DNA from: Paraglaciecola sp.
GTDB lineage: Bacteria > Pseudomonadota > Gammaproteobacteria > Enterobacterales > Alteromonadaceae
Direction of reading: 5' to 3'
Assembly (NCBI RefSeq): GCF_039943935.1
Contig: NZ_JBDUZQ010000004.1
Coordinates: 36,657-100,656 of the forward strand
Length of the DNA: 64,000 nt
A program made the position numbers and the translations under genes. The notes beneath the pieces were generated by a model. That model was given only the letters and a program-made list of their open reading frames with translations, was not told where the DNA came from and made no database searches. Positions 14,522-36,082 of the stretch are shown in pieces (positions within the stretch are counted from its first letter, which is position 1; each line of letters begins with the position of its first letter).

Positions 14522-17500
14522 ATGAAATCTTGCATGAAAGACGGTGGCTTATTTTCAGGTAAAAACCGTGTTAAAACCTTAGCGGTGCTCATAGGTTGTT
14601 CTTTATTACCGAGTAATGTTTTAGCAGGAAATAGTTGGCTGTCAAAAAGTACGGTACTAGAAAATCAAAAGCAGCCTAAGTCTTACTATTCTACTAATTT
14701 GATAGATGCTAAGGCAATTGAAAATTCTGACCAAGTTTTGTTTGATATCACGGTGTCTTTGTATAACTCTCCTGCAGGAGATGATGATGCACTCACGACC
14801 AATGGTGATCCACAAGAAATTCATGAAGAAATTATCGGGCATTTTGCTGACGCTGTTTGTGAGCAAAGTAATGGCATTCATAAATTGCAGAAAGTTAGCC
14901 TATTTAAGAATAAAAAGCACCAAGCTAAAGCTGATATTATTTGGAACAATAGTGAGTGGCCTAGAGCCCATCTCGCTGGATTTGGTGCTAATGGTATGCA
15001 CATATATTTCGGCGATATTTTTCCTGGTGGAAATGGCACCAGTGACAAGGACATGCTGGCAGATACCAAAGGAGCTGGGTACACATTAGGTCACGAGTGG
15101 GGGCACTATGTATATGGGTTATTTGATGAATATAGTGGCTCGGCAGACTCGACTGCTTCTGCAAGCACTCCGCAAAATACAGATGTTGAGACTGTTCCCT
15201 CAATCATGTCAAACCAATGGCTTGCATCTACAAGCGGAAACCAATGGTTAAACCACTCTACTAGTAATAATTTAGGGGATGCTGCCAGAACTGCGCAAGG
15301 TAGAGTATATGGTAAAAGTGGATGGGAAATTTTAGTTCAAGACCCTAAAGATGATCCTAAATCTGGACAAGCTACCGCTCAACCTGACAGAACAAGGTAT
15401 TTAGCATTAGGTAATGGGAGCCCAACGGCTGCTGATAATTGGGTAAAAGAAGAATTAGCAGATGCAAACTTTGATTGTAGAAGTCAGCTAGATATTGTTT
15501 GGGTTGATGGTGATATTGACATGCAAATTGTTATAGATCGCTCTGGTAGTATGGGTGGAACGCCTATAGCAAATGCCACTCAAGCAGCAAAATTACTGGT
15601 TGATGCAACAGCTGAAGGTACAACAAGCTTAGGTGTAGTATCGTTTGCTAACTCTCCATCGCAAACAAGTGCTTTGCAAGTTATACCGTCTCCCGGCACA
15701 ACAATTAAGGAAGGTATAAAACAAACCATCGATACAATATACTCGGGCGGGTCTACCGCCTTATTTGATGGAGCACAATTAGCGCTAGATAATTTAGTGA
15801 CATATCAGTCTCAAGCTAATTCTGGTGCGCCCGGAGTTGTGTTTGTTTTAGCTGATGGTGATGATAATAGTTCATATTATTCACAAGCGAATGTTATTCA
15901 AAACTACCAGAGTGCGAATATCCCTATCTTTTCTTTTGGATATGGTGGCGCTTCACCAACTGGTCCATTATTGGAACTCGCGAATGGAACGGGTGGAAAA
16001 TATTTCTCTTCACCTACTACATTATCAGAAATTACGGATGCATTTTTGCAGGCTAATGCTTTGGCGACTGATAGTCAAAACTTAGCTGATACATCTAGCA
16101 GTATTTTGGCTTCTTCATCGGCAGATTTTGATTTAGAAGTAGACTCGGGCATTGCTAACTTAAGTTTGTTCTTCAGCCATAATGGTAATGTAGATGATAT
16201 TTCTTTCGGCATTTATGATGCTGCGGATGACTTATTAACAGTTGAGGTAGATTGTATTAGCTTGTCTGGCGGTGTGTCATGTTCTGCAAATATTGACGAA
16301 ACGCAAATAACCACTTCTGATCCGGGGGCGTGGAGGGTAAATGTGGAAAATACGGCAGTATACGAGCTAGACGTTTCATTTAATGCATCTGGAGAACCTT
16401 CTGATAATGGAACCTTTAATGTTACCGTTGAAGGTGTTGATGGAAATTCAATTTCTTATCCTGAATTAATGATTTTAACTACTGCTATAACCAAAGATAG
16501 AAATGTAACTGGTGTGAACGTTAGCGCTTTAATTGTTGACCCGAACAGTGTGGAAACCCAGTTTCACATGACAGACGATGGAACAAATGGGGACGGAACT
16601 GCTAATGATGGTATTTATTCAGCCATTATAGGTTACCAAACTAATGGGTTGTATCAAGTATCAGTATTTGTAGATAATAGCAACTTAAATGCGAAATTTT
16701 CAGATGTAGGTTTGTTAACACCCACAGTGGATGGCTCTCAACCAACTGCACCTGTACTTCCTGCTATTCAAGAAAACTTTTACCGTGTATCTAAAGCCTC
16801 TTTGGTGGTAAGCAATGTACCATTTAGCGATGGCGATGATTCTATTTCTTATGCAAATCAATTTACGCCAGATAACACCGGATTTGATAGTCAAATTAAC
16901 TCGGCAGGTGATATAGACTTTTTTGAAGCCGATGGTGTCGATACAACTCAGTCCATTTTTGTAAGGGTTACAAGGTTAAGCTTAGGTATGATGCCTAAAC
17001 TAACTGTGCTTGCTTCTGATGGTGTAACACCAATCGTTAGTGGTGCTACGTTAGCAGATTCAATATCAGACACCGGATATTTATACAAAGAAATAGACGC
17101 TTCTTTGCTAACTTCAACTATTTACTTAACCATTGAACATGAAGACTCTGCAGCTGTTCAAGGTGGATATGAGATTAGTTTAGGTGCGCAATTAAATACA
17201 GATGTGCCACCTAACTCCCCACCACAGGTTGCTGCAGATTCAGAAACCTTGTTTGCAGGGTTTTCTGTAACCTTGGCTCCTTTGGCTAATGATATAGATA
17301 GCGATGGTGATATTATATCGATTGATAGCCTTGATAGTGCTGGAGCCTTAGGTGAACTCACATTAAACACGGATGGCACCGTTACATTTAATGCTGAAAC
17401 TGCCTACGCAGGATTAGTTCCTGGTGAATCGTTAACTGAAGTGATGAGTTATATAGTATCTGATGGCAATGGGGGATTTTCAAAAGGAGAAATTTCTGTA

Positions 17501-18211
17501 TTAGTTATTGCTAACAGCCATCCTGATGCAGTTGCAGACAATTTTGATGTGGCAGAAGATGCCATTGTGTCATTTACTCCGCTATTAAATGATAGTGACG
17601 TAGATGGGCACACAATAACATTCGTTAGTATCGAGTCTTCCCAGCTTGCTGGTGTGCTTACTGATAATGGTGATGGTAGCTATTTATATGATCCTAATGG
17701 TCAATTTAACCATTTGTCTGAAGGTGAATCATCTCAAGAGCTGTTAACTTATGTTATTGCTGATGAGCTGCTAGCGGAAACCACTGGTACGGTAACTATC
17801 TCTGTAAATGGTTTAAATCAGGCTCCTATTGCAATTGCCGATTCGGTTAGCGTAGCTGAAAATACAACAGTAGACTTCGATGTGATTGCGAATGACACTG
17901 ATGCCGACTTAGATGTATTAACGGTCACTAGTATTGATTCGACTGCAACATCAGGAGAAGTAACGCTCAATGCAAATGGTACGGTGCACTACGATCCTAA
18001 TGGTTTATTTGATAGCCTGGATTTTGGTAGTACAGGTACTGATACATTTACTTATATTGTGAGTGATGGGGAGCTTACCGAGGTAGCAACCGTTACAGTT
18101 ACAATTACTGGGGTAGATGATCCTGCCAAATCAGGAGGTGGGGGTGGTTCAATATTTTGGCTTTTACCTTTATGTTTTATGGTCGCAGTACGAAAATTGA
18201 AAAATAGCTAA
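14522..18211 (+). CDS. CLCA-like zinc metalloprotease / VWA / Ig-repeat surface protein with GlyGly-CTERM anchor
   Basis: HEWGHYVYGLFDEY (H191, E192, H195); VWA MIDAS IDRSGSM; TDDGTNGDGTANDGIYS; three NxxPxAxxD Ig/cadherin-like repeats; SGGGGGS + TM helix + RK tail; RBS ggagg. Confidence 0.85.
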   Translation: MKSCMKDGGLFSGKNRVKTLAVLIGCSLLPSNVLAGNSWLSKSTVLENQKQPKSYYSTNLIDAKAIENSDQVLFDITVSLYNSPAGDDDALTTNGDPQEIHEEIIGHFADAVCEQSNGIHKLQKVSLFKNKKHQAKADIIWNNSEWPRAHLAGFGANGMHIYFGDIFPGGNGTSDKDMLADTKGAGYTLGHEWGHYVYGLFDEYSGSADSTASASTPQNTDVETVPSIMSNQWLASTSGNQWLNHSTSNNLGDAARTAQGRVYGKSGWEILVQDPKDDPKSGQATAQPDRTRYLALGNGSPTAADNWVKEELADANFDCRSQLDIVWVDGDIDMQIVIDRSGSMGGTPIANATQAAKLLVDATAEGTTSLGVVSFANSPSQTSALQVIPSPGTTIKEGIKQTIDTIYSGGSTALFDGAQLALDNLVTYQSQANSGAPGVVFVLADGDDNSSYYSQANVIQNYQSANIPIFSFGYGGASPTGPLLELANGTGGKYFSSPTTLSEITDAFLQANALATDSQNLADTSSSILASSSADFDLEVDSGIANLSLFFSHNGNVDDISFGIYDAADDLLTVEVDCISLSGGVSCSANIDETQITTSDPGAWRVNVENTAVYELDVSFNASGEPSDNGTFNVTVEGVDGNSISYPELMILTTAITKDRNVTGVNVSALIVDPNSVETQFHMTDDGTNGDGTANDGIYSAIIGYQTNGLYQVSVFVDNSNLNAKFSDVGLLTPTVDGSQPTAPVLPAIQENFYRVSKASLVVSNVPFSDGDDSISYANQFTPDNTGFDSQINSAGDIDFFEADGVDTTQSIFVRVTRLSLGMMPKLTVLASDGVTPIVSGATLADSISDTGYLYKEIDASLLTSTIYLTIEHEDSAAVQGGYEISLGAQLNTDVPPNSPPQVAADSETLFAGFSVTLAPLANDIDSDGDIISIDSLDSAGALGELTLNTDGTVTFNAETAYAGLVPGESLTEVMSYIVSDGNGGFSKGEISVLVIANSHPDAVADNFDVAEDAIVSFTPLLNDSDVDGHTITFVSIESSQLAGVLTDNGDGSYLYDPNGQFNHLSEGESSQELLTYVIADELLAETTGTVTISVNGLNQAPIAIADSVSVAENTTVDFDVIANDTDADLDVLTVTSIDSTATSGEVTLNANGTVHYDPNGLFDSLDFGSTGTDTFTYIVSDGELTEVATVTVTITGVDDPAKSGGGGGSIFWLLPLCFMVAVRKLKNS

Positions 18212-25455: not shown

Positions 25456-25898
25456 CTTGCTTGATTAATAACCGTATCAACCTAGTTGCAGCAGTTAATA
25501 CTTGCGAACCTGAGCGGTTTTCCCTAACATACGCGCCACTTTGTAAGAATGGCAGTTAGCTACAAGTTGTTTTTACAAAAATTACTGATGTAAAGCGGTT
25601 ACCTAACGCTTAAGCTTACCGTTAAAGCTTTGATATAAGGTATGAAATTTAGGAAAGGTGGGTTAAACCGCTCTCTTTAGGAGCACTGCTCCGCGCGGTT
25701 TAACATCGAGTCAAGGATGGCGAGATTGGGTGCATATCATCATGGACGTGTATTTGACTGCGATGAAGTATGTATAAATGTATTGCTTTAAAACCTTATA
25801 AATAAGGTTCTATGCCAAAAGTAATAGATAAAGCGCACGCCTTGCGTTGAGTTAAGTTCAAGTAACTCATTTAAACAGGCTTACAATTTAAAAGTTTT

Positions 25899-25988
25899 GG
25901 AGAGGTGGCTGAGTGGCTGAAGGCGCACGCCTGGAAAGTGTGTTTAGGGTTAAACCTAACGAGGGTTCGAATCCCTCTCTCTCCGCCA
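25899..25988 (+). tRNA. tRNA-Ser(GGA)
   Basis: GGAGAGG acceptor, cacgc-ctGGAaa-gtgtg anticodon arm, long variable arm, GGTTCGAATCC T-loop, encoded CCA. Confidence 0.97.
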
Positions 25989-26270
25989 TATACAAAATGA
26001 CCCGCTTAATGCGGGTTTTTTTGTATATGGCAGAGAGAGGATTTGGTTCGGAGCCTAGGTTCGACTAATCTTCTGGAACGATTTATTCACTACATCCATG
26101 TAGTTCACCCACTTCGTGGGCTAGCCAACGCTATTCTAATTTGTTCCAACAAATTTTGGTGTACCGCCTCTGGCGCCTGAAGGGGCGGGCACATAGATGT
26201 GCCTGAGTACATCCCGAACGGCCAAGCACCCATCAAGTATCAGTATGTTGTTAGCTGGGGCTTTTTTATT
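25970..26270. repeat. tRNA-linked multi-hairpin element with inverted copy of the tRNA 3' end
   Basis: 26018-26044 is an imperfect reverse complement of 25970-25997. Central terminator hairpin acccgc/gcgggt, then actacatccatgtagt, cccacttcgtggg, aatttgttccaacaaatt and gcacatagatgtgc. Confidence 0.6.
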
Positions 26271-26335: not shown

Positions 26336-26764
26336 TTAATTGGGCAATACCCATTGATTATTGTGGTCTTTGATAAACTGAGTTTTTTGCTCGACCATAG
26401 ATAAGTCTAAACCAATATAATAGTCAGGGTTGTCGCCAATCCATTTTAGGTTTTTGTCATCATCGCTAAAAGTGACTTTTAGTAAAAATAACTTTTTGGT
26501 ATCAGTGTCCTTATAAAGCTCATTGGCGTAATAAGGAATAAGTTCTAATTTAGAGAAATGAATGTAGCCTTCTTTGGCAATCGACAAAGGGGTATATACA
26601 TTATCTTTAGTTAAGGTGGCTAATTCTTGCTCGCTCACAATGTGATACAAAGTGGTACCCGCTAGGCTTGCGCTACTCACTAAAAAACTTAAAAGTAGAC
26701 ATCCTCCTAGCAATAGCCGTTTAAGATTGGTTTTTACGTTAATATTTACCCTGTAACCTTGCAT
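26336..26764 (-). CDS. DUF952-like protein with signal peptide
   Basis: Hydrophobic leader ending ASLA, then LYHIVS...EGYIHFS. Confidence 0.7.
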   Translation of the reverse strand: MQGYRVNINVKTNLKRLLLGGCLLLSFLVSSASLAGTTLYHIVSEQELATLTKDNVYTPLSIAKEGYIHFSKLELIPYYANELYKDTDTKKLFLLKVTFSDDDKNLKWIGDNPDYYIGLDLSMVEQKTQFIKDHNNQWVLPN

Positions 26765-26765
26765 C

Positions 26766-27278
26766 TTATTTACCCTCTATTATGTCAGACACCGACAAAA
26801 ATGTACCGTCGGCTGCTCTTGAAACAGTGTGCACTTGTATCACTGCTGATGGGTTGATACCCCCCAATATGTGTGGGAAAAGCTCGCTGTCGGTGCCAGG
26901 AAAATCAGGCTGTTTGTCACCTACAGGTTCAGTGCCTTCAAATATGGTTTTTACTCCGGTAGCTTGCAAGGTGTCTACAGACATCCTCAAACATAACCAG
27001 TCACCAGTCACCTCTTTATAAAAATGATTGCCAATAATTAGTAAAAAATCTGGGTTAGCAGTGGCATGAGTGAATTCGTCTTGGCTATAAGTTGGTGGGT
27101 AATAAGTGCCTTTGCTGGCTAGGGTTTTTTCCCACAACTCTTTTTGGACTAGATGAAATATATAAGGATATTTTGTAGTGTACTCACTCGCTGTGTCTTC
27201 TTTAGCGGCGAAAGCCGATGATTGAAATAACATCATAAAAACGGCTATCAAGGTGCTGCTTAAAATGCTTCTTTTCAT
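26766..27278 (-). CDS. DUF952-like protein with signal peptide
   Basis: Leader ending AFA; IFHLVQKELW, FTHAT, NHFY and LFPHILGGIN motifs; 1 bp from the next gene. Confidence 0.8.
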   Translation of the reverse strand: MKRSILSSTLIAVFMMLFQSSAFAAKEDTASEYTTKYPYIFHLVQKELWEKTLASKGTYYPPTYSQDEFTHATANPDFLLIIGNHFYKEVTGDWLCLRMSVDTLQATGVKTIFEGTEPVGDKQPDFPGTDSELFPHILGGINPSAVIQVHTVSRAADGTFLSVSDIIEGK

Positions 27279-28413: not shown

Positions 28414-28759
28414 GATGAACCTGTTGGTTGTTGAGGTAAAACAACCTTAACGTGGCTTTATTAACAAATATCTAACACTTTAGTACAGACCTACAATTTG
28501 CTTACTCATAAGCCAAGTTTTTGATAATAATCGGTTGCCGCCAAAGGGCAAATGCGTGGGTAGGTGTGATTGGTAGCTTTAATAAACTGATGTTTGTTCA
28601 ATGCGCCTTAACAACAGGTTTTTTACCTAGGAAATTGTAGTAATGAGCTAATGTGATGTAATAAAAAACAACCACTTTTCTTTCTTGGGTAAAAATAGTA
28701 ATCTCGATTGTAGAATAAAAATTCTAAAAACTGTTTACGTTCGATGGATATGAATTTAC

Positions 28760-29674
28760 ATGGCAAGTGATTTGGCGCTAGTACACCTTGGGTTTAAACA
28801 GGTAGAGAAGTTATCGCTTCAATATGGTGATTCGATACCTCATCAAGCGATTTCAGAAGGGTTCTTTTTTAATGGTGAGAAAGTTCTTTTAGATAATCGA
28901 GCTGTAGGCATTTTTAAACCCAGACAAATGTTTGAGTGTGCTATGAGTATTAAAACTACTATGCAGCGAGATGGCACTGAAGGTGTTTACAACGACCATC
29001 ATGACAGTGGCGATCACTACAAGTATGCGTTGCAGCGAGGTGATCCATACGGAGTCAATAATAAGTACCTTTGGGCTTCAATGAATACTGGAACCCCAGT
29101 CATTTACTTTCAAGCTATTGCTCCGGGTCGATATACAGCCATTTGGCCATGCTTCGTTAAAGAAATATTACCTGAAAAAGGCTACGCCTTAATTGTGGAG
29201 AGTAATAAAGTTACTTCTTCGATGCTGCCAGACCATAAGCATCAATTACCTACAGAAATCGAAAGCCGATATTGTGTCAGAGAAACAAAAGTGCGCATGC
29301 ATCAAGCGTCATTCAGACAAAATGTGCTAGATGCATACAGCGGCAAGTGCGCGATTACAGGTCTGCCAAACAAAAGCTTGCTAGAAGCTGCACATATCAT
29401 CCCAGATTTAGAGTTAGGTAAAATACAATACGTCAGTGACGGCATCGCCCTAAGCCGAATTCACCACAGAGCCTACGATCTAAATTTATTAGGCATTTCC
29501 CCAGATAACGAAATCCACATAAGTGATGAGTTAAAACAGGGTAAAGACAATAAGTTCATGCGAGACGTATTGCTAGAATTCGAAGGCCGAAAGTTAGTTA
29601 TGCCACGTTCGGCTGTTAACAGACCAGACAAAGAGAAATTAGCGGCTCGGTTTGAGGTATTTCTTGGGGGGTAG
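28760..29674 (+). CDS. HNH endonuclease (HNH_2 type) with distinct N-terminal domain; candidate modification-dependent nuclease
   Basis: HQASFRQNVLDAY, CAITG, LEAAHIIP and DGIALSRIHHRAYD. Confidence 0.85.
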   Translation: MASDLALVHLGFKQVEKLSLQYGDSIPHQAISEGFFFNGEKVLLDNRAVGIFKPRQMFECAMSIKTTMQRDGTEGVYNDHHDSGDHYKYALQRGDPYGVNNKYLWASMNTGTPVIYFQAIAPGRYTAIWPCFVKEILPEKGYALIVESNKVTSSMLPDHKHQLPTEIESRYCVRETKVRMHQASFRQNVLDAYSGKCAITGLPNKSLLEAAHIIPDLELGKIQYVSDGIALSRIHHRAYDLNLLGISPDNEIHISDELKQGKDNKFMRDVLLEFEGRKLVMPRSAVNRPDKEKLAARFEVFLGG

Positions 29675-29815
29675 TTTGGACACTGATATTCGATAAGTGA
29701 TGAAGCGATAATGCTTTCAGAGTGGTTATTGAAATGTGTGTTTCAATTGAAATTTTTAGCACGGACACCATTAATTTGTGTCATTTGATTAGGGCTTTTT
29801 ATAAGGGAGAGACAG

Positions 29816-31216
29816 ATGAAACATCTAGGACGAATTACTGCATCACCAGAGCAGTTAAAAATCATTAGTACTAATCAGTCTGGGGCTGAGTTAATTCGTG
29901 GTTCAGCAGGGAGCGGTAAGACTACAACTGCACTTCTTAGATTGACTTCTTTAACGAACATGATCCGAGCGAAAAAGGATCGGCTAGATGATGATAGTGC
30001 GGTTAAGGTATTATTATTAACATTTAACAGGACACTTGCGGGTTATGTCCGTGTGTTGGCCGAAGAGCAAATTAACGGTACAGGGCATCAAATAGAGATC
30101 AACACATTTGCTAAATGGTCACTAAGAAAACTCAATATCTCCACTATTCAACCTGAACCGGCTAGGGATCACCTGAGAGTGCTCTCTCGCCTATTTATTG
30201 GTCTTGACTCTTCTTATGTTATGCAAGAAGTTGAGTACTTACTGGGACGATTTGAACCTGAGCGCCTTGAAGACTATATTTCGATAGAGCGGACTGGCAG
30301 AGGAGTACTACCAAGGGTCAGTGGAGATCTGCGACGTCGTATTTTGGATGAAATTGTATATCCATATATTAAACATCTAAGTGATAAAAATTGGATTGAT
30401 TGGAACCTTTTAGCAATCAAAATGCGCCGAGAGGTAGATTGTCTTGAATATGACATCATAATTGTTGACGAAAGTCAGGACTTTTCAGCAAATGAAATTC
30501 GTACAATTCAACATCACCTTGCAGAAGATCATGCTTTAACCTTTGTAATTGATACTGCACAACGTATCTACGCTCGCGGATTCACTTGGGTTGAAGCTGG
30601 GATTACCGTTTCTGGGAAACGTTCCCACCGTCTTCAAGAAAATCACCGAAATACAAGAGAAATAGCTGCTTTTGCTTCTGGCATTTTGGAAGGGGTTGCT
30701 GTAGACACTGACGGAGTTATTCCCAACTTAACAGCTGCAACAAAATCAGGCCCCCTTCCTAAAGTTATTTCTGGTAAGTATTCAATTCAAATTGATTGGG
30801 CTATTAACTATATTCGAACCAGCGTAGACCTTAACACCGAAACAGTTGCGTTTTTAAAACCACAAGGCGGCGCTTGGTTCGATACAATTAGGGCCGAACT
30901 TACACAAGCAGGCATTGATTACGTAGACATGCAACGTAATCCAGATTGGCCTCAAGGAGATGAAAACGTTGCGATTTCGACTTTCCACTCTGCGAAAGGT
31001 TTGGAGTACGATCACGTTATTATTCTAGGGTTTAATCAAGAAAATACAGCTTTTGGCGACGAGGAAACAACAGACCAAATTCAGGTTCTTCGTCGACTTC
31101 TTGCTGTTGCTGTCGCTAGAGCTAGGAAACAAGTAATAGTTGGATATAAGTCTGGAGAAGAATCACGGCTGACTGAATTCTTTCAAGCAGGTACTTTTAA
31201 GGAAATTTCGCTTTGA
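29816..31216 (+). CDS. Compact UvrD-like superfamily 1 helicase
   Basis: Q-motif EQ, Walker A GSAGSGKTT, LTFNRTLA, Walker B DESQD, DTAQRIY, NHRNT, TFHSAKGLE and AVARARK. Confidence 0.92.
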   Translation: MKHLGRITASPEQLKIISTNQSGAELIRGSAGSGKTTTALLRLTSLTNMIRAKKDRLDDDSAVKVLLLTFNRTLAGYVRVLAEEQINGTGHQIEINTFAKWSLRKLNISTIQPEPARDHLRVLSRLFIGLDSSYVMQEVEYLLGRFEPERLEDYISIERTGRGVLPRVSGDLRRRILDEIVYPYIKHLSDKNWIDWNLLAIKMRREVDCLEYDIIIVDESQDFSANEIRTIQHHLAEDHALTFVIDTAQRIYARGFTWVEAGITVSGKRSHRLQENHRNTREIAAFASGILEGVAVDTDGVIPNLTAATKSGPLPKVISGKYSIQIDWAINYIRTSVDLNTETVAFLKPQGGAWFDTIRAELTQAGIDYVDMQRNPDWPQGDENVAISTFHSAKGLEYDHVIILGFNQENTAFGDEETTDQIQVLRRLLAVAVARARKQVIVGYKSGEESRLTEFFQAGTFKEISL

Positions 31217-31890
31217 GTTTACAAATTAAAATTGAGCAAAGAGGAATATCGGAAGTTCTACATTTTTCCACTAATAGGGGGGTTATAGGTGTATTGCACA
31301 GTAGGCACTTATTATCGCGCCCGCTTTTGAATGAAAATGCTTACCTTCGCCATGTTTTACAACTTAACGCTTCAGTTAGGCCAGAAGAATCGGAATATTT
31401 TGATAAATCGGAAGATTGGATCCGTTTCATTAATTTGTCAATTTCTGAGATCAATAAACGTTTTTTAGATGTATCACGAAAGTGGCATAACAATGTGGAT
31501 GTTTGGTGGTGCATTCTAGCATTTGATCCGCTCATCATGAAACATGACGGAGTGAGATTTGCTACAACTAATAATGGCTATGATCAATGTCGAAGAGGCC
31601 AAAGTGAAGAAGGATTTGACGCACTATTTGCGCCTACGATTCGTCGAAAGGCTAGTGGTTACAATGGACAGCCGTGGTCAGTTTCTAGGCAAAGACGGCC
31701 CAATAACTTAACAACTTGTGAGCAAGCCGAAGTCTTGTATCCCGAAAAGCTGAGCCTCGATTATCTAAGAACTGTGTATGTTGAAGAAGACGAACACCAT
31801 GATGTGGTCATGGGATGGTTAAGAGACTTTAACTACGATAATATCGACGTTGTAGTTAAACCTGAAAAATTCGTGGGGAGGCGTAATTGA
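31213..31890 (+). CDS. darT: DarT-family (DUF4433) DNA ADP-ribosyltransferase toxin, DarT1-like
   Basis: IEQRGISEVLHFS (H17), LLSR, INLSIS, WCILAFDP, FATTN, EGFDALF and TTCEQAEVL (catalytic E173) are collinear with DarT1 as I recall it. TTG start overlaps the helicase TGA. Confidence 0.85.
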   Translation: MSLQIKIEQRGISEVLHFSTNRGVIGVLHSRHLLSRPLLNENAYLRHVLQLNASVRPEESEYFDKSEDWIRFINLSISEINKRFLDVSRKWHNNVDVWWCILAFDPLIMKHDGVRFATTNNGYDQCRRGQSEEGFDALFAPTIRRKASGYNGQPWSVSRQRRPNNLTTCEQAEVLYPEKLSLDYLRTVYVEEDEHHDVVMGWLRDFNYDNIDVVVKPEKFVGRRN

Positions 31891-33596
31891 ATAATTATAT
31901 AAATGAAGCTCCTGTTGCCTCGTACACTGAGGCAGACTATGAGCGCTCGATTGTGAACTCATCTCTTTGGGCGGCCGCAGGTGATGCAATCGGCTGGATG
32001 ACAGAGCTTTCTGGTGGTGTCAATGGCGTAATGCACAGAACGGGTCATAAATTAGTAACAGAACCAGTGGACTGGCAGAGGCGCATCGGGGGGCGAACAG
32101 GAGTTAAAGTAGATTTGCCAGCTGGAACATATTCAGATGATACTCAACTCAGGCTTTGCGTCTCGCGTGCTATCCGTGGAAATGGCTCTTTTGATGTTGA
32201 AGCGTTTGCAAAAATTGAAGTAACCACATGGCAAGGATATTGTTTGGGGGCTGGGATCGGCTCCAAAGCAGCGGCTACTAATCTAACTAAGCGGGGCGTA
32301 AATTGGTTCTCTAATTTCTTTGATACCGATCACCAGAGATATATCACGGCTGGTGGTAATGGTGCCGCGATGAGAATTCAACCTCATGTATGGGCCGCGA
32401 ACGGAACACTTGATGAAATGATACTTCGTGTCATGCGTGATGCAATTGTAACGCATGGTCATCCCCATGGCTTTTGCGGAGCAGTTTTCCATGCTCTGTG
32501 TCTTTGGATCACATTGAGTAGTCGAAATATTCCATCACTGGATATCGCAAAGCAATTCATTTCCTATATGGATAAGTTACCAAGAATTTTGGAAAAAGAT
32601 AATGAACTCCATGCATTCTGGAAGCCTGCATGGGAAAGGGAATCAGGTGGAAGTCTTGTAGACGCTATACATATTTTCCAGAAAGAGGCGTTACATGATT
32701 TCTCGTTGGTTGAGGATGCGTTCAACACTTCACCGTCCCCAGATTACCACGATATTCTCAACCGGTTGGGTTGTTTAACTGATAAGTACCGTGGTTCTGG
32801 TTTCAAGACTGCATTTGCAGCCCTAGTACTATCAATATTGTACTCTTCAGAAAGAATTGAGGATGCTTTAACCCGTTCAGCAAATGAACTCGAAAGCGAC
32901 ACTGATACAATAGCAACGATGGCTGGGGCTATTTTAGGCTCTTTAGTGGAGTTTGAGCCGAATTGGCAAATTCAAGACATGGACTACCTTAAATCAGAAG
33001 CTCAACGGATGGTACTTATTGCAAAAGGTGTGCGTGCGTTGAGTTTTTCCTATCCCGACGTTTCTGTATGGGAACCGCCAATGAACCAATCAGATTCTGT
33101 TGTAATGAGGAAGGGAGCTTTAGCACTAAGAGGTATCGGAAATCTTGTCCCGTTAGGTAAAGAGTATAGCTCAGGAAGTTCGATTTGGCAGTGGTTTCAG
33201 CTACCTTTTGGACAGAGTGTGCTTGCGAAGCGACGATTTAATACTCGTTCATCTGTAAATGAAAACCAAATGCCAGGGGAGCCTTTGTTGTCAAAAATTA
33301 AAAGCGACTCTACGAGTATGAAGCACGAGCAAAATAGCTTTGAATTTACTGAGCATAAAGAAAACAATAATGAGTATCATAACCGCTGCCCCAATTTGAA
33401 TATATCTCGAGTTGAACCTTTTCCCGGTTTGGATGAAGCGACTAATGTTGTTATCGCATCTAATTTTGATAATGAAACAATTGGACGTGTTATAAATCAA
33501 TGTATTGAAGCAACAGGTAGTATTGAATTAACAGTTAGTCTGTCTGCGATTATTGCCAAGGCACGCCTAGCTCGACAAAGGAGAAAATCAAATTAA
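31887..33596 (+). CDS. ADP-ribosylglycohydrolase (DraG/ARH family) with long C-terminal extension
   Basis: AAGDAIG, YSDDTQ (D84, D85), GNGAAMR, THGHP and SDTDTIATMAGAILG (D338-T341). RBS ggggagg; TTG start overlaps the darT TGA. Confidence 0.92.
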   Translation: MNNYINEAPVASYTEADYERSIVNSSLWAAAGDAIGWMTELSGGVNGVMHRTGHKLVTEPVDWQRRIGGRTGVKVDLPAGTYSDDTQLRLCVSRAIRGNGSFDVEAFAKIEVTTWQGYCLGAGIGSKAAATNLTKRGVNWFSNFFDTDHQRYITAGGNGAAMRIQPHVWAANGTLDEMILRVMRDAIVTHGHPHGFCGAVFHALCLWITLSSRNIPSLDIAKQFISYMDKLPRILEKDNELHAFWKPAWERESGGSLVDAIHIFQKEALHDFSLVEDAFNTSPSPDYHDILNRLGCLTDKYRGSGFKTAFAALVLSILYSSERIEDALTRSANELESDTDTIATMAGAILGSLVEFEPNWQIQDMDYLKSEAQRMVLIAKGVRALSFSYPDVSVWEPPMNQSDSVVMRKGALALRGIGNLVPLGKEYSSGSSIWQWFQLPFGQSVLAKRRFNTRSSVNENQMPGEPLLSKIKSDSTSMKHEQNSFEFTEHKENNNEYHNRCPNLNISRVEPFPGLDEATNVVIASNFDNETIGRVINQCIEATGSIELTVSLSAIIAKARLARQRRKSN

Positions 33597-33976
33597 TCCG
33601 CAAACTACGGACAAACTATCGGAAACTATTGCGGTCAGAACAAAGTTAAATCAATATACAGGATAGCAACGATAACTATTGCCGTTCTAACGAAATAATT
33701 CTAATTTCTTGTGGCTCTGCCATTGCTTTTTCTGCATTTAAAGTTTCAGCTAATAATGGCTTATTCTTAGGGCCAGTGACAAGGGGGAGGTTGGTTGTTT
33801 TAGAAGCCGGCTTCGCCCAGTTGAATAGATCGAAAGGTAAGTCGAGATTGGGTGGCGTTTAACTTAGACGTATGATTGACTAGGTTAAAGCGTTCACATC
33901 GGGTAGGAAAAGTACATTCTGTAGCGAGCGACCTTTTTTGCTTGAATTCAAAGAACACACATGACAACCCTCAATA

Positions 33977-34870
33977 TTAAATCAAATTATCCGTTCGTAA
34001 CGTCTTTTGTTTTACCTGATGGGTTATACGTTTGATTTGTTCTTGGCAAAGTTGTTGACCATATAGTTTGGGGATTTGATGGCTTAGGGTTTTAGTTGCT
34101 ATAACAGGGAGTATTGGTTTCGATATTATTTTAACGAACCAACCGGGGATAGTGACAACTGGGCAAACGGCTATTTTCTCTCCTGTGGCTTCAGTTAACC
34201 AATTGGTTGCCCATTTAGCTTGTCTTGTGGCTTGTTCGATAATGTTTGTGTCAGTGTAGTTGGGGAAGTCTAGAATCTTGCCCTTTACATTAACTACATG
34301 TTCTTGGGATTTTTTGGCTGTGGTTTTAGAGTTTGTAGGTTTTCTTTTGCCTTTGGTTTCGATTGCGAATACGCCATTTGGGCCAACGACTAGATGATCT
34401 ATGTTGAATTTGTCACATTGAATGTCGTGGAATACTTTATATCCAGTGGCTTCAATATTATGTAACTCTGAGGAGACAAACCACTCTGCTTCTAAGCCGA
34501 GTCTTAAGTTGTTTCTACTTTTTGTGGTTCTTATTGTTTTAACCAAAATGTAGATAATCCCTATGACGTAAAAGGGTACTAGCAACCAAGGCATGACTTT
34601 TTCTATTCCTAAAAGCTTATATGCACCGACATAAATAAATGGCAAATTAAATAAGAAAGTTAACATAATTAGGTGCCCGAAAAGGTCGGCCGACTTATCA
34701 TTAAATTCTGACAGCACACTTTGGCCAGCGACTCTACGACTAACACTCACATCAAATGGGTAGCGTTTATTACGACCTGCAGCAGCTAAAGTAAGCTTGA
34801 TTACGCCAACAAAAATTAGCATCGGTAGTAAAACAGCTGCAGGCATTATTAATCCATCAAAAATATTCAA
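33977..34870 (-). CDS. NERD (nuclease-related domain) protein with N-terminal TM helices
   Basis: GLEAE, FHDI, NIDHLVVGPNGVFAIETK NERD signature; three hydrophobic segments precede it. Confidence 0.88.
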   Translation of the reverse strand: MNIFDGLIMPAAVLLPMLIFVGVIKLTLAAAGRNKRYPFDVSVSRRVAGQSVLSEFNDKSADLFGHLIMLTFLFNLPFIYVGAYKLLGIEKVMPWLLVPFYVIGIIYILVKTIRTTKSRNNLRLGLEAEWFVSSELHNIEATGYKVFHDIQCDKFNIDHLVVGPNGVFAIETKGKRKPTNSKTTAKKSQEHVVNVKGKILDFPNYTDTNIIEQATRQAKWATNWLTEATGEKIAVCPVVTIPGWFVKIISKPILPVIATKTLSHQIPKLYGQQLCQEQIKRITHQVKQKTLRTDNLI

Positions 34871-35116
34871 AGAGACTTATCCAAATGTATTTGTAGAATA
34901 CAAATGATACATAGAATTATACGCCGCCATAAATATCTCAATGTATAACAATATCTAGAAAACTATGCGCTTAAAATTGGTTGGAGTGCGGCTCAAACAA
35001 GTGACCTATAGAACCAGATTCTTTGACCTCCTCCTTTTCTAAATATAAAAATCCAAGCACACGCTCGTAATGTTTTTTGCCACAGGTGATGGCACTAAAA
35101 GTGGGTATATAAGCCC

Positions 35117-35305
35117 CTAGTCTTTGGACTTACGGAGGTTGTATTTATTCCAGAGAACAGACAAAGCCAACACAATGACAACGGCTAAAGCTAGCCCTAA
35201 CAAAGATGGGTATTCGTAGGCCTTAAATAATTGCAATATAGACAAACTCACAATGAAATAAATAGCTACAAGCCAAAAAGGGGGTTTCACTCTGGGGATT
35301 GCCAT
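35117..35305 (-). CDS. Small two-TM hypothetical protein
   Basis: 62-aa ORF with two hydrophobic helices and an RBS-like agga upstream. Confidence 0.55.
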   Translation of the reverse strand: MAIPRVKPPFWLVAIYFIVSLSILQLFKAYEYPSLLGLALAVVIVLALSVLWNKYNLRKSKD

Positions 35306-35338
35306 TTGATGGTTCCTAATCTGTGATGTGTTTAATGT

Positions 35339-35412
35339 AAATAACAGGTTTTGCTTGTTCTGATTTACCGTTTACTAATATTACCGCAATAACAAAGGCG
35401 TTGTAGTTAGAT
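35339..35412 (-). mobile_element. Possible degenerate attC site
   Basis: On the minus strand ATCTAAC (perfect RYYYAAC) ... GTTATTT, 74 bp, between two small same-strand ORFs; internal pairing only moderate. Confidence 0.3.
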
Positions 35413-35447
35413 TGAATGGCTTATAGCACTGACTTTCATTACCTAAA

Positions 35448-35840
35448 TCAAAGTACTACTTCTACATTACGAATTTTCTCACCCTTGTGAATACAGTGTA
35501 AGTCTTTGTTGCCCCATATCTTCACTTTTTTGCCATTCATGTAACTGGCGAGTAATAAATCAAACTGGGCTTTTTCTGCGGGATTAGTTAATAGCATTTG
35601 CCAATAGACTTTTTTGGGGCATAGTCCATTGGGTACGTCTGCTTCAAGGCGCACAATTACTCGCTGTGAGTCGGGTTTGCCGGTTGTGTCATTACTTACA
35701 AATAGTTTGGTGATTTTGCCTTCTTGAATTGCTTGACCTGCAGCGAAACTATTTGCAGTTAGTAACCCAAATACGATCACCATCACCACTTTGATCGCGT
35801 TGTTTTGTGTAAGGTTACCTTTAAACTTTGTAATACTCAT
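35448..35840 (-). CDS. Small secreted hypothetical protein
   Basis: Signal peptide ending SFA; beta-rich mature part with two cysteines. Confidence 0.7.
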   Translation of the reverse strand: MSITKFKGNLTQNNAIKVVMVIVFGLLTANSFAAGQAIQEGKITKLFVSNDTTGKPDSQRVIVRLEADVPNGLCPKKVYWQMLLTNPAEKAQFDLLLASYMNGKKVKIWGNKDLHCIHKGEKIRNVEVVL

Positions 35841-36082
35841 ATTGTTTGGCTCTTAATTTGTACTGCACATTATACAAATACCATAACTCACTTAGGGCGT
35901 TCTCACAAAATTCTGGCGAGTTCCACGTGTTATGGGCGCTGCTATTGGCCCTTTAGAACAATGGTTGAACAAAACACTTCATTGTTTTTTATCAAGGTTG
36001 AAAACGGCCGCTAGTAAAACTAGCTTGATAAATGTACACTTATCAAGTTATCTGCTTTTTTCCTTTCTAAAAACGAGTCAAC

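Follow-up and report, generated by a model that had tools for sequence, protein, structure and literature searches.

A divergent helicase, DarT and ARH-hydrolase operon of probable DarHTG type in a marine Paraglaciecola

Positions 29816 to 33596 of a 64,000-nucleotide stretch of Paraglaciecola sp. DNA (contig NZ_JBDUZQ010000004.1; the whole stretch is called the window below) hold three co-oriented genes. In the order of a single operon they encode a UvrD-like helicase (DarH), a DarT-fold ADP-ribosyltransferase (DarT) and an ARH-type ADP-ribosylhydrolase (DarG3). We read the locus as a probable intact member of DarHTG, an anti-phage toxin-antitoxin system described from Escherichia coli. The leader, the three open reading frames (ORFs) and the parts of the third product are listed here in window coordinates.

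29675..29815, + strand: leader, 141-bp intergenic segment upstream of the operon, with the Shine-Dalgarno-like sequence AAGGGAG at 29803-29809
29816..31216, + strand: darH, ORF of 466 amino acids (aa), ATG start, UvrD-like superfamily 1 (SF1) helicase without a 2B domain
31213..31890, + strand: darT, ORF of 225 aa, TTG start, DarT-fold ADP-ribosyltransferase, putative toxin
31887..33596, + strand: darG3, ORF of 569 aa, TTG start, ARH-family ADP-ribosylhydrolase, putative antitoxin
31944..32966, + strand: catalytic ARH domain, ∼ residues 20-360 of DarG3; metal-binding motifs D84-D85-T86 and D338-T339-D340
33039..33236, + strand: beta-rich module of DarG3 (∼ residues 385-450), conserved pattern SFxYPD..W.PP..Q.D....GLG....WQW..L.FGQ..L.K
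33429..33590, + strand: three-helix C-terminal module of DarG3 (residues 515-568), with the basic tail AKARLARQRRK

The ORFs and their junctions agree with the original prediction, made from the letters of the window, that the three genes are joined by 4-bp overlaps. Each junction reads TTGA, the TTG start of the following gene sharing 4 bp with the TGA stop of the gene before it: CTT-TGA overlaps TTG-AGT between darH and darT, and AAT-TGA overlaps TTG-AAT between darT and darG3. Because of these overlaps, the three proteins would be expected to come from one translationally coupled operon. Purine-rich, Shine-Dalgarno-like stretches lie 5' of each start (AAGGGAG for darH, AAGGAA for darT and GGGGAGG for darG3), and the TTG starts of darT and darG3 agree with the N-termini of aligned homologues. 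The leader contains a weak promoter-like site (9/12 matches) at 29683-29712. Since promoter-like sites in the region are no more numerous than expected from shuffled sequence, the promoter of the operon is not established. Terminator-like sites are in slight excess (9 versus 6.3 in shuffled sequence, standard deviation 2.1), and in this shuffled comparison of the region neither type of site points to a boundary of the operon.

DarH matches the Pfam families UvrD_C (1.7e-13), UvrD-helicase (2.5e-09) and AAA_19. For each of the three proteins a family alignment was built from database homologues and the genes of related loci (28 helicases, 20 DarT proteins and 27 hydrolases). Among the helicases the Walker A residues G32-S33-G34-K35-T36 and motif II, D218-E219-x-Q221-D222 (DESQDF in the window copy), are invariant, as are N276, R278-N279-T280, S392, K394-G395-L396-E397 and R435. 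Aligned with E. coli UvrD (PDB 3lfu), the profile of the family places DarH residues 25-294 on UvrD 26-299 and residues 383-448 on UvrD 551-617. Because this alignment skips from UvrD 299 to 551, ∼ 160 residues are judged to be absent at the position of the 2B domain. By its sequence, DarH is a UvrD-like SF1 helicase without this domain. The closest solved relative by sequence is HelD (PDB 6wvk), and over its full length DarH is 48% identical to the E. coli helicase WP_000699006.

The middle protein matches the Pfam family DarT (PF14487, 3e-16) over residues 17-220, and 462 homologues were found at E <= 0.001. H17 and the block T168-C169-E170-Q171-A172-E173 (TCEQAEVL in the context of the window) are invariant in the 20 relatives. 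Going by the QAE motif and its position rather than by a residue-level superposition, E173 is the predicted catalytic glutamate, the counterpart of E152 in DarT1 and E160 in DarT2. When the AlphaFold2 model of DarT (mean predicted local distance difference test score, pLDDT, of 85) was compared with solved structures by Foldseek, all matches at E <= 0.001 were DarT structures. The best was DarT1 of E. coli C7 (8baq; E 1.3e-8, template modelling (TM) scores 0.70/0.75, 19% identity), followed by Thermus DarT2 (7omx, 7omv) and the Mycobacterium tuberculosis DarT (7yk3); the E-values of these matches run from 1e-8 to 1e-5. Against the DarT2 structures the TM-score is about 0.6 (0.58-0.61 on the query; 0.59-0.67 for Thermus DarT2) at 10-14% identity. 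A sequence profile of the DarT family had a sole match in the PDB, again E. coli C7 DarT1 (E 1.5e-5). The label 'DarT1-like' that had been given to this protein is thus right in a weak sense: DarT1 supplies both the sole PDB sequence match and the best fold, yet at an identity of only 19%. Judged from sequence and model together, the window protein is a member of the DarT family that stands slightly closer to DarT1 but belongs to a clade of its own. E. coli WP_000151475 is 42% identical to it over the full length.

DarG3 matches the Pfam family ADP_ribosyl_GH (PF03747, 7.6e-32) over residues 29-353. Both ARH metal-binding motifs, D84-D85-T86 and D338-T339-D340, are invariant in the 27 hydrolases and align with the motifs of ARH3, the 'GDTDTIATMAGAI' stretch included. 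The AlphaFold2 model (pLDDT 88.9) divides into four parts: the ARH core, a beta module, a linker and a three-helix module. Its Foldseek matches are ARH3, MJ1187, ARH1, DraG and the immunity protein of the Listeria ADP-ribosyltransferase (ART)-ARH pair (E 1e-9 to 2e-7), with TM-scores on the target of 0.72-0.80 for ARH3, MJ1187 and DraG. By NCBIfam, DarG3 weakly resembles DraG and the Arg-specific hydrolase Tri1. The full-length identity to E. coli WP_001087212 is 38%. Across the three proteins, every catalytic residue named in the original prediction (helicase K35 and D218-E219; DarT H17 and QAE173; hydrolase D84-D85 and D338-T-D340) is intact and lies in an invariant column.

Beyond the ARH core, DarG3 carries a C-terminal extension of ∼ 210-215 residues that is conserved across the family. 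Its beta-rich module is modelled as five strands (pLDDT 90-95) and contains the invariant residues P390, W395, Q443 and K448. A variable, disordered linker (residues 473-508, pLDDT < 50) precedes the three-helix module, which is modelled with helices at 515-524, 529-543 and 546-568 and has F527, G533 and A559 as invariant residues. The last 210 residues have no Pfam match at E-values up to 5, and against PDB sequences they gave only chance-level matches (E 0.8-1.6). Foldseek results for the whole of DarG3 are dominated by the ARH domain, and hence no relative has been assigned to the fold of the extension. When 1.84 billion representative proteins were searched with a profile of the C-terminal 215 residues, 575 were found, 504 of them at E <= 1e-10; the full-length ones have 540-630 aa and are matched at ∼ residues 345-570. 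A stand-alone C-terminal module was considered and rejected: of six matches inspected, the four shortest, which align from close to their first residue, begin at an internal Met of the ARH motif TMAGAILG, which identifies these four as gene fragments. The extension therefore appears to occur solely as a fusion with this ARH domain. In canonical DarG, a C-terminal domain binds DarT. By analogy, the beta-rich and three-helix modules of DarG3 are candidate docking elements for DarT or DarH.

None of the three proteins contains a macrodomain or a NADAR domain (Pfam). The expectation that the locus would lack both antitoxin types, carry a DraG/ARH hydrolase in the position of DarG and add a helicase is therefore borne out by Pfam and Foldseek. 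The arrangement is also recurrent. DarT patterns, scanned against a single genome of each prokaryotic species, picked out 55 loci. In 53 of them the helicase gene lies directly upstream of darT and a full-length ARH gene directly downstream, all on one strand; of the other two, one holds a DarT fragment and one is a match at the end of a contig. The neighbourhood check proposed with the original prediction thus excludes chance adjacency. Gene sizes are steady over the loci (∼ 465, 210-225 and 545-575 aa), and the helicase and darT genes overlap by 4 bp in 25 of the 35 clean loci. Identities to the three window proteins co-vary (Spearman 0.85-0.92 over 41 loci, a figure inflated by relatedness), which is the pattern expected of a co-inherited cassette. 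No fourth conserved gene recurs among the two nearest ORFs on each side (43 loci, 123 ORFs). These flanking ORFs are heterogeneous and include integrases (5), IS110-type transposases, resolvases and helix-turn-helix proteins among housekeeping genes.

The hosts belong to at least eight phyla and comprise Alpha-, Beta- and Gammaproteobacteria, Bacteroidota, Acidobacteriota, Desulfobacterota, Actinomycetota, Chloroflexota, Verrucomicrobiota and Saccharimonadales. A few plasmids, from Cereibacter, Salmonella and Streptomyces, carry the trio, and the phage collection searched contained no DarT homologue. Some relatives have decayed and have broken or truncated genes (loci L036, L038, L040, L051 and L054). 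The nearest relatives of the window trio lie on contigs assigned to Cryomorphaceae (helicase 78% identical) and Nisaea (77%), not to gammaproteobacteria.

A system of this composition has been published by Liu et al. as a preprint (bioRxiv 10.64898/2025.12.08.692795, December 2025) and as an article (Nucleic Acids Res 2026;54:gkag308, April 2026, PMC13069673). Called TgaH-DarTG in the preprint and DarHTG in the article, it goes back to Liu-DS3, an E. coli candidate characterized as 'a DarTG system with an additional helicase', and consists of DarH (a UvrD-like helicase without 2B), DarT and DarG3, the last likened to ADP-ribosylglycohydrolases and unlike both known DarG types (PMC13069673). 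In E. coli, DarHTG confers protection against T4, T5, T7 and SSL_2009a, and the phenotype resembles abortive infection; defence is lost in DarT active-site mutants and in DarH ATP-binding mutants, and no DarG3 mutant could be obtained, so that DarG3 appears indispensable (PMC13069673). The system is commonest in Thermodesulfobacteriota and Bacteroidota (PMC13069673). The original prediction, which knew of no named system with this composition but allowed that databases might contain one, does not survive on this point: the architecture is on record under both names with phage defence in E. coli, and the locus matches this described system. The window trio agrees with it in its three components, in their order and in the conserved catalytic residues, and a mobile, patchy distribution is common to DarHTG and the family of the window trio. 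It differs in being a divergent orthologue, of putative function, in a marine member of the Alteromonadaceae. The beta-rich and three-helix modules of DarG3 do not appear in the part of the published description on which we draw (PMC13069673).

The trio was also sought in E. coli itself, in 5426 complete genomes with a Kluyvera trio as query, a search that more divergent trios would escape. It is present in 21 of them as one operon type, 90-95% identical to the query. In E. coli AR_0128 it lies at NZ_CP021722.1 3045330-3049088 (L056), in an island with insertion sequence elements and an integrase, with a P-loop NTPase fold protein of ∼ 1300 aa just downstream. RefSeq labels its genes '3'-5' exonuclease', DarT family and ADP-ribosylglycohydrolase family; with the helicase named as an exonuclease and the other two by family only, the record gives no sign of DarHTG. 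End to end, the window proteins are 48, 42 and 38% identical to the AR_0128 trio.

Other known systems share single features with the window trio. DarTG2 pairs DarT2 with a macrodomain DarG and modifies thymidine in single-stranded DNA (ssDNA); it is known from Thermus and M. tuberculosis (PDB 7omv, 7yk3). It resembles the window trio in the DarT fold and in an antitoxin made of an enzymatic domain and a further C-terminal part, which in DarG binds DarT. The window trio differs in having a helicase and no macrodomain, and the C-terminal modules of its DarG3 match no known family. DarTG1 pairs DarT1 with a NADAR protein and modifies guanine in ssDNA, as in E. coli C7 (PDB 8baq; PMC11543638). 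Here the likeness extends to the DarT fold, 8baq being the closest solved structure to the window DarT, to the toxin-antitoxin logic and to the role in phage defence, whereas the window antitoxin has an ARH fold instead of NADAR and an extra, essential third gene encodes the helicase. Since the identity to DarT1 is only 19%, guanine specificity cannot be assumed for the window DarT. A canonical two-gene DarTG1 or DarTG2 operon was considered and rejected: the antitoxin has an ARH fold and the helicase is conserved as a third gene.

In Tre1-Tri1 of Serratia (PDB 6dre) and the Listeria ART-ARH pair (PDB 8za7), as in the window trio, an ARH-fold enzyme neutralizes its cognate ADP-ribosyltransferase toxin, and both Tri1 and the Listeria protein are among the sequence or fold matches of DarG3. 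However, these toxins modify proteins, are exported effectors and belong to another ART clade, whereas the window system has a DarT fold, is intracellular and includes a helicase. The GajB protein of Gabija is, like DarH, an SF1 UvrD-like ATPase serving defence, and it is the best of the generic GajB-like matches that the PADLOC 2023 models gave for the helicase (6e-23). The match is limited to generic helicase motifs; DarH is shorter, lacks 2B and has no GajA partner. Gabija was rejected, since the conserved neighbours are DarT and the ARH enzyme, not a GajA nuclease of the OLD family.

NadA, encoded in the window, is 83% identical to NadA of Paraglaciecola polaris, which places the host in the Alteromonadaceae. 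Within the genus, darT was found in one of 25 genomes, the window's own, and in none of the 24 others. Synteny with five complete genomes of the genus extends from nadA through a tRNA-Ser to a lipase gene (∼ 28490) and resumes at ABC-transporter genes (∼ 36012), which sit elsewhere in one relative. The ∼ 7.5 kb between them (∼ 28490-36010) is unmatched in all five and contains an HNH gene, the trio, a NERD gene on the opposite strand and a 130-codon ORF. These neighbours and the tRNA gene are located as follows.

28760-29674, + strand: HNH gene, 304 aa, C-terminal HNH_2 nuclease domain, ending 141 bp upstream of the trio
33977-34870, - strand: NERD gene, 297 aa, hydrophobic N-terminal segments and a NERD domain (Pfam, 1.2e-15), converging on the end of the trio
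35448-35840: 130-codon ORF, no family match
25899-25988: tRNA-Ser(GGA), ∼ 2.5 kb upstream of the start of the variable stretch

Neither direct repeats flanking the variable stretch nor an integrase were found. The unmatched stretch, the sparse occurrence of darT and the non-gammaproteobacterial nearest relatives point to horizontal acquisition of the trio into a small variable islet. The HNH protein matches the PADLOC 'HNH' model PDLC04132 (1.2e-26) and, below threshold (60.9 bits versus a cut-off of 180), the NCBIfam model 'phosphorothioated DNA-binding restriction endonuclease'; its N-terminal ∼ 170 aa have no family match. The gene was considered as a fourth component and rejected, as it accompanies the trio in 0 of the 55 loci. 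Its product is probably an independent modification-dependent restriction nuclease of the same islet. The NERD protein has no NCBIfam match. Together, the HNH and NERD neighbours suggest a defence islet.

Some further features of the window were recorded. Intergenic segments of 40-200 nt at ∼ 33600-33920, immediately 3' of the darG3 stop codon, and at ∼ 25650-26220, around the tRNA-Ser, have dozens of matches (72-94%) in related genomes and therefore look like small dispersed repeats. A 29-nt inverted repeat (25977-26039) immediately follows the tRNA-Ser, and in Rfam only the tRNA was matched. At 26336-27278 on the - strand lie two adjacent paralogous genes for proteins of 142 and 170 aa; each protein has a DUF952 domain (Pfam, 4e-8 and 1e-7) and an N-terminus resembling a signal peptide. 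At 14522-18211 on the + strand the ORF list contains a predicted secreted protein of 1229 aa, in which we noticed by eye a zinc-protease motif of the HExxH type (GHEWGH), a VWA-like middle part, cadherin-like 'VxDxDxDG' repeats and a C-terminus made of a glycine run and a hydrophobic tail.

These data are consistent with a model in which DarT is an NAD+-dependent ADP-ribosyltransferase that, on account of its fold and conserved catalytic residues, would most likely act on ssDNA and block the replication of phage and cell. In the uninfected cell the two-metal ARH site of DarG3 would hydrolyse the ADP-ribose mark and so keep DarT harmless, and the family-specific C-terminal modules may hold DarT or DarH. 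DarH would be an ATP-driven SF1 translocase required for defence, as is established in the E. coli homologue only. Most likely it would expose ssDNA or detect phage replication intermediates and so aim DarT at the invader. Infection would shift the balance towards DarT and lead to abortive or growth-arresting immunity. The mechanism first proposed for the locus, with the helicase sensing or unwinding phage DNA on behalf of the writer and the ARH enzyme erasing the mark, is of this kind and is plausible.

We put the probability that the locus is an intact member of DarHTG, that is, a self-contained and horizontally mobile three-gene anti-phage toxin-antitoxin system, at roughly 80%. Several points weigh against it. 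ARH enzymes are, to our knowledge, known for Arg-, Ser- and phosphate-linked ADP-ribose, not for the base-linked form. The PADLOC 2023 models match DarT weakly (E 3e-4) and no family of theirs matches the ARH protein, so that, with only generic GajB-like matches to the helicase, they give no basis for calling a system. The window proteins are just 38-48% identical to those of E. coli, and the AR_0128 trio, which is very likely of the tested DarHTG type, is tied to it by composition and description, not by accession numbers. Moreover, no DNA ADP-ribosylation has been reported for any DarHTG member. The tie by description also applies to Liu-DS3 and the window, and on that ground the published DarHTG might be an unrelated combination of helicase, DarT and ARH enzyme, which would leave the window family undescribed. 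We find this scarcely credible, because the description fits (E. coli, a UvrD-like helicase without 2B, DarT and an ARH-like antitoxin), as does the frequency in Thermodesulfobacteriota and Bacteroidota (PMC13069673), and because a single helicase-DarT-ARH operon type was found in the 5426 E. coli genomes (with the Kluyvera query, which misses divergent trios). It is very improbable, too, that the cassette serves its host mainly as an addiction or stabilization module of the island, or as a growth regulator like mycobacterial DarTG, and gives no useful defence. The toxin-antitoxin architecture, the location in a variable island here and on plasmids or beside integrases elsewhere, and several decayed relatives would suit such a role. 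However, the homologous system of E. coli gives helicase-dependent defence against four phages (PMC13069673), the neighbours are a NERD protein and an HNH nuclease that matches a PADLOC defence model, and it is not evident why a plain addiction module would need an ATP-dependent helicase.

The chemistry of the same cassette calls for separate consideration. Two enzyme types are known to remove base-linked ADP-ribose, macrodomains and NADARs (PMC11543638), and the antitoxin of the window trio is neither; its closest folds are ARH3, ARH1, DraG and the ART-ARH toxin-immunity pair, and its weak NCBIfam similarities are to DraG and the Arg-specific Tri1. DarT might use an acceptor that is neither thymine nor guanine in ssDNA, such as a different base, the phosphate end of DNA or RNA, RNA itself, or a protein of the replication- or transcription-factor type, with the ARH enzyme reversing the modification and the helicase delivering the toxin. 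The identity of DarT to DarT1 and DarT2 (only 19 and 10%), the absence of any reported DNA modification for DarHTG, and the best solved relative of DarH by sequence, the RNA polymerase binder HelD, would all agree with such an acceptor. Nevertheless, we consider it unlikely. All significant fold matches of DarT are DNA-modifying DarT proteins, the H...E catalytic pattern is accompanied by a whole-protein Pfam DarT match, and DNA is the simplest substrate for a UvrD-like helicase. What DarH shares with HelD is the generic SF1 core, and the N-terminal part by which HelD inserts into the polymerase is absent from the 466-aa DarH.

For an intact DarHTG member, as we read the locus, the architecture is already known, and the window adds a new marine member to it. 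As a discovery this is minor, since the architecture was named and validated in 2025-26. The window trio is a data point, an intact and divergent copy in an island of a marine member of the Alteromonadaceae. Together with the 53 syntenic loci it defines the invariants of the family, namely the catalytic motifs, the 2B-less helicase and the two C-terminal modules of DarG3. It is possible, although we think it rather doubtful, that the biochemistry of DarHTG is new, either in that the ARH-fold DarG3 hydrolyses base-linked ADP-ribose on DNA or in that the acceptor of DarT lies outside thymine and guanine in ssDNA, with the enzyme delivered by the helicase. If so, the C-terminal modules of DarG3 would be the docking or sensing element that frees DarT upon infection.

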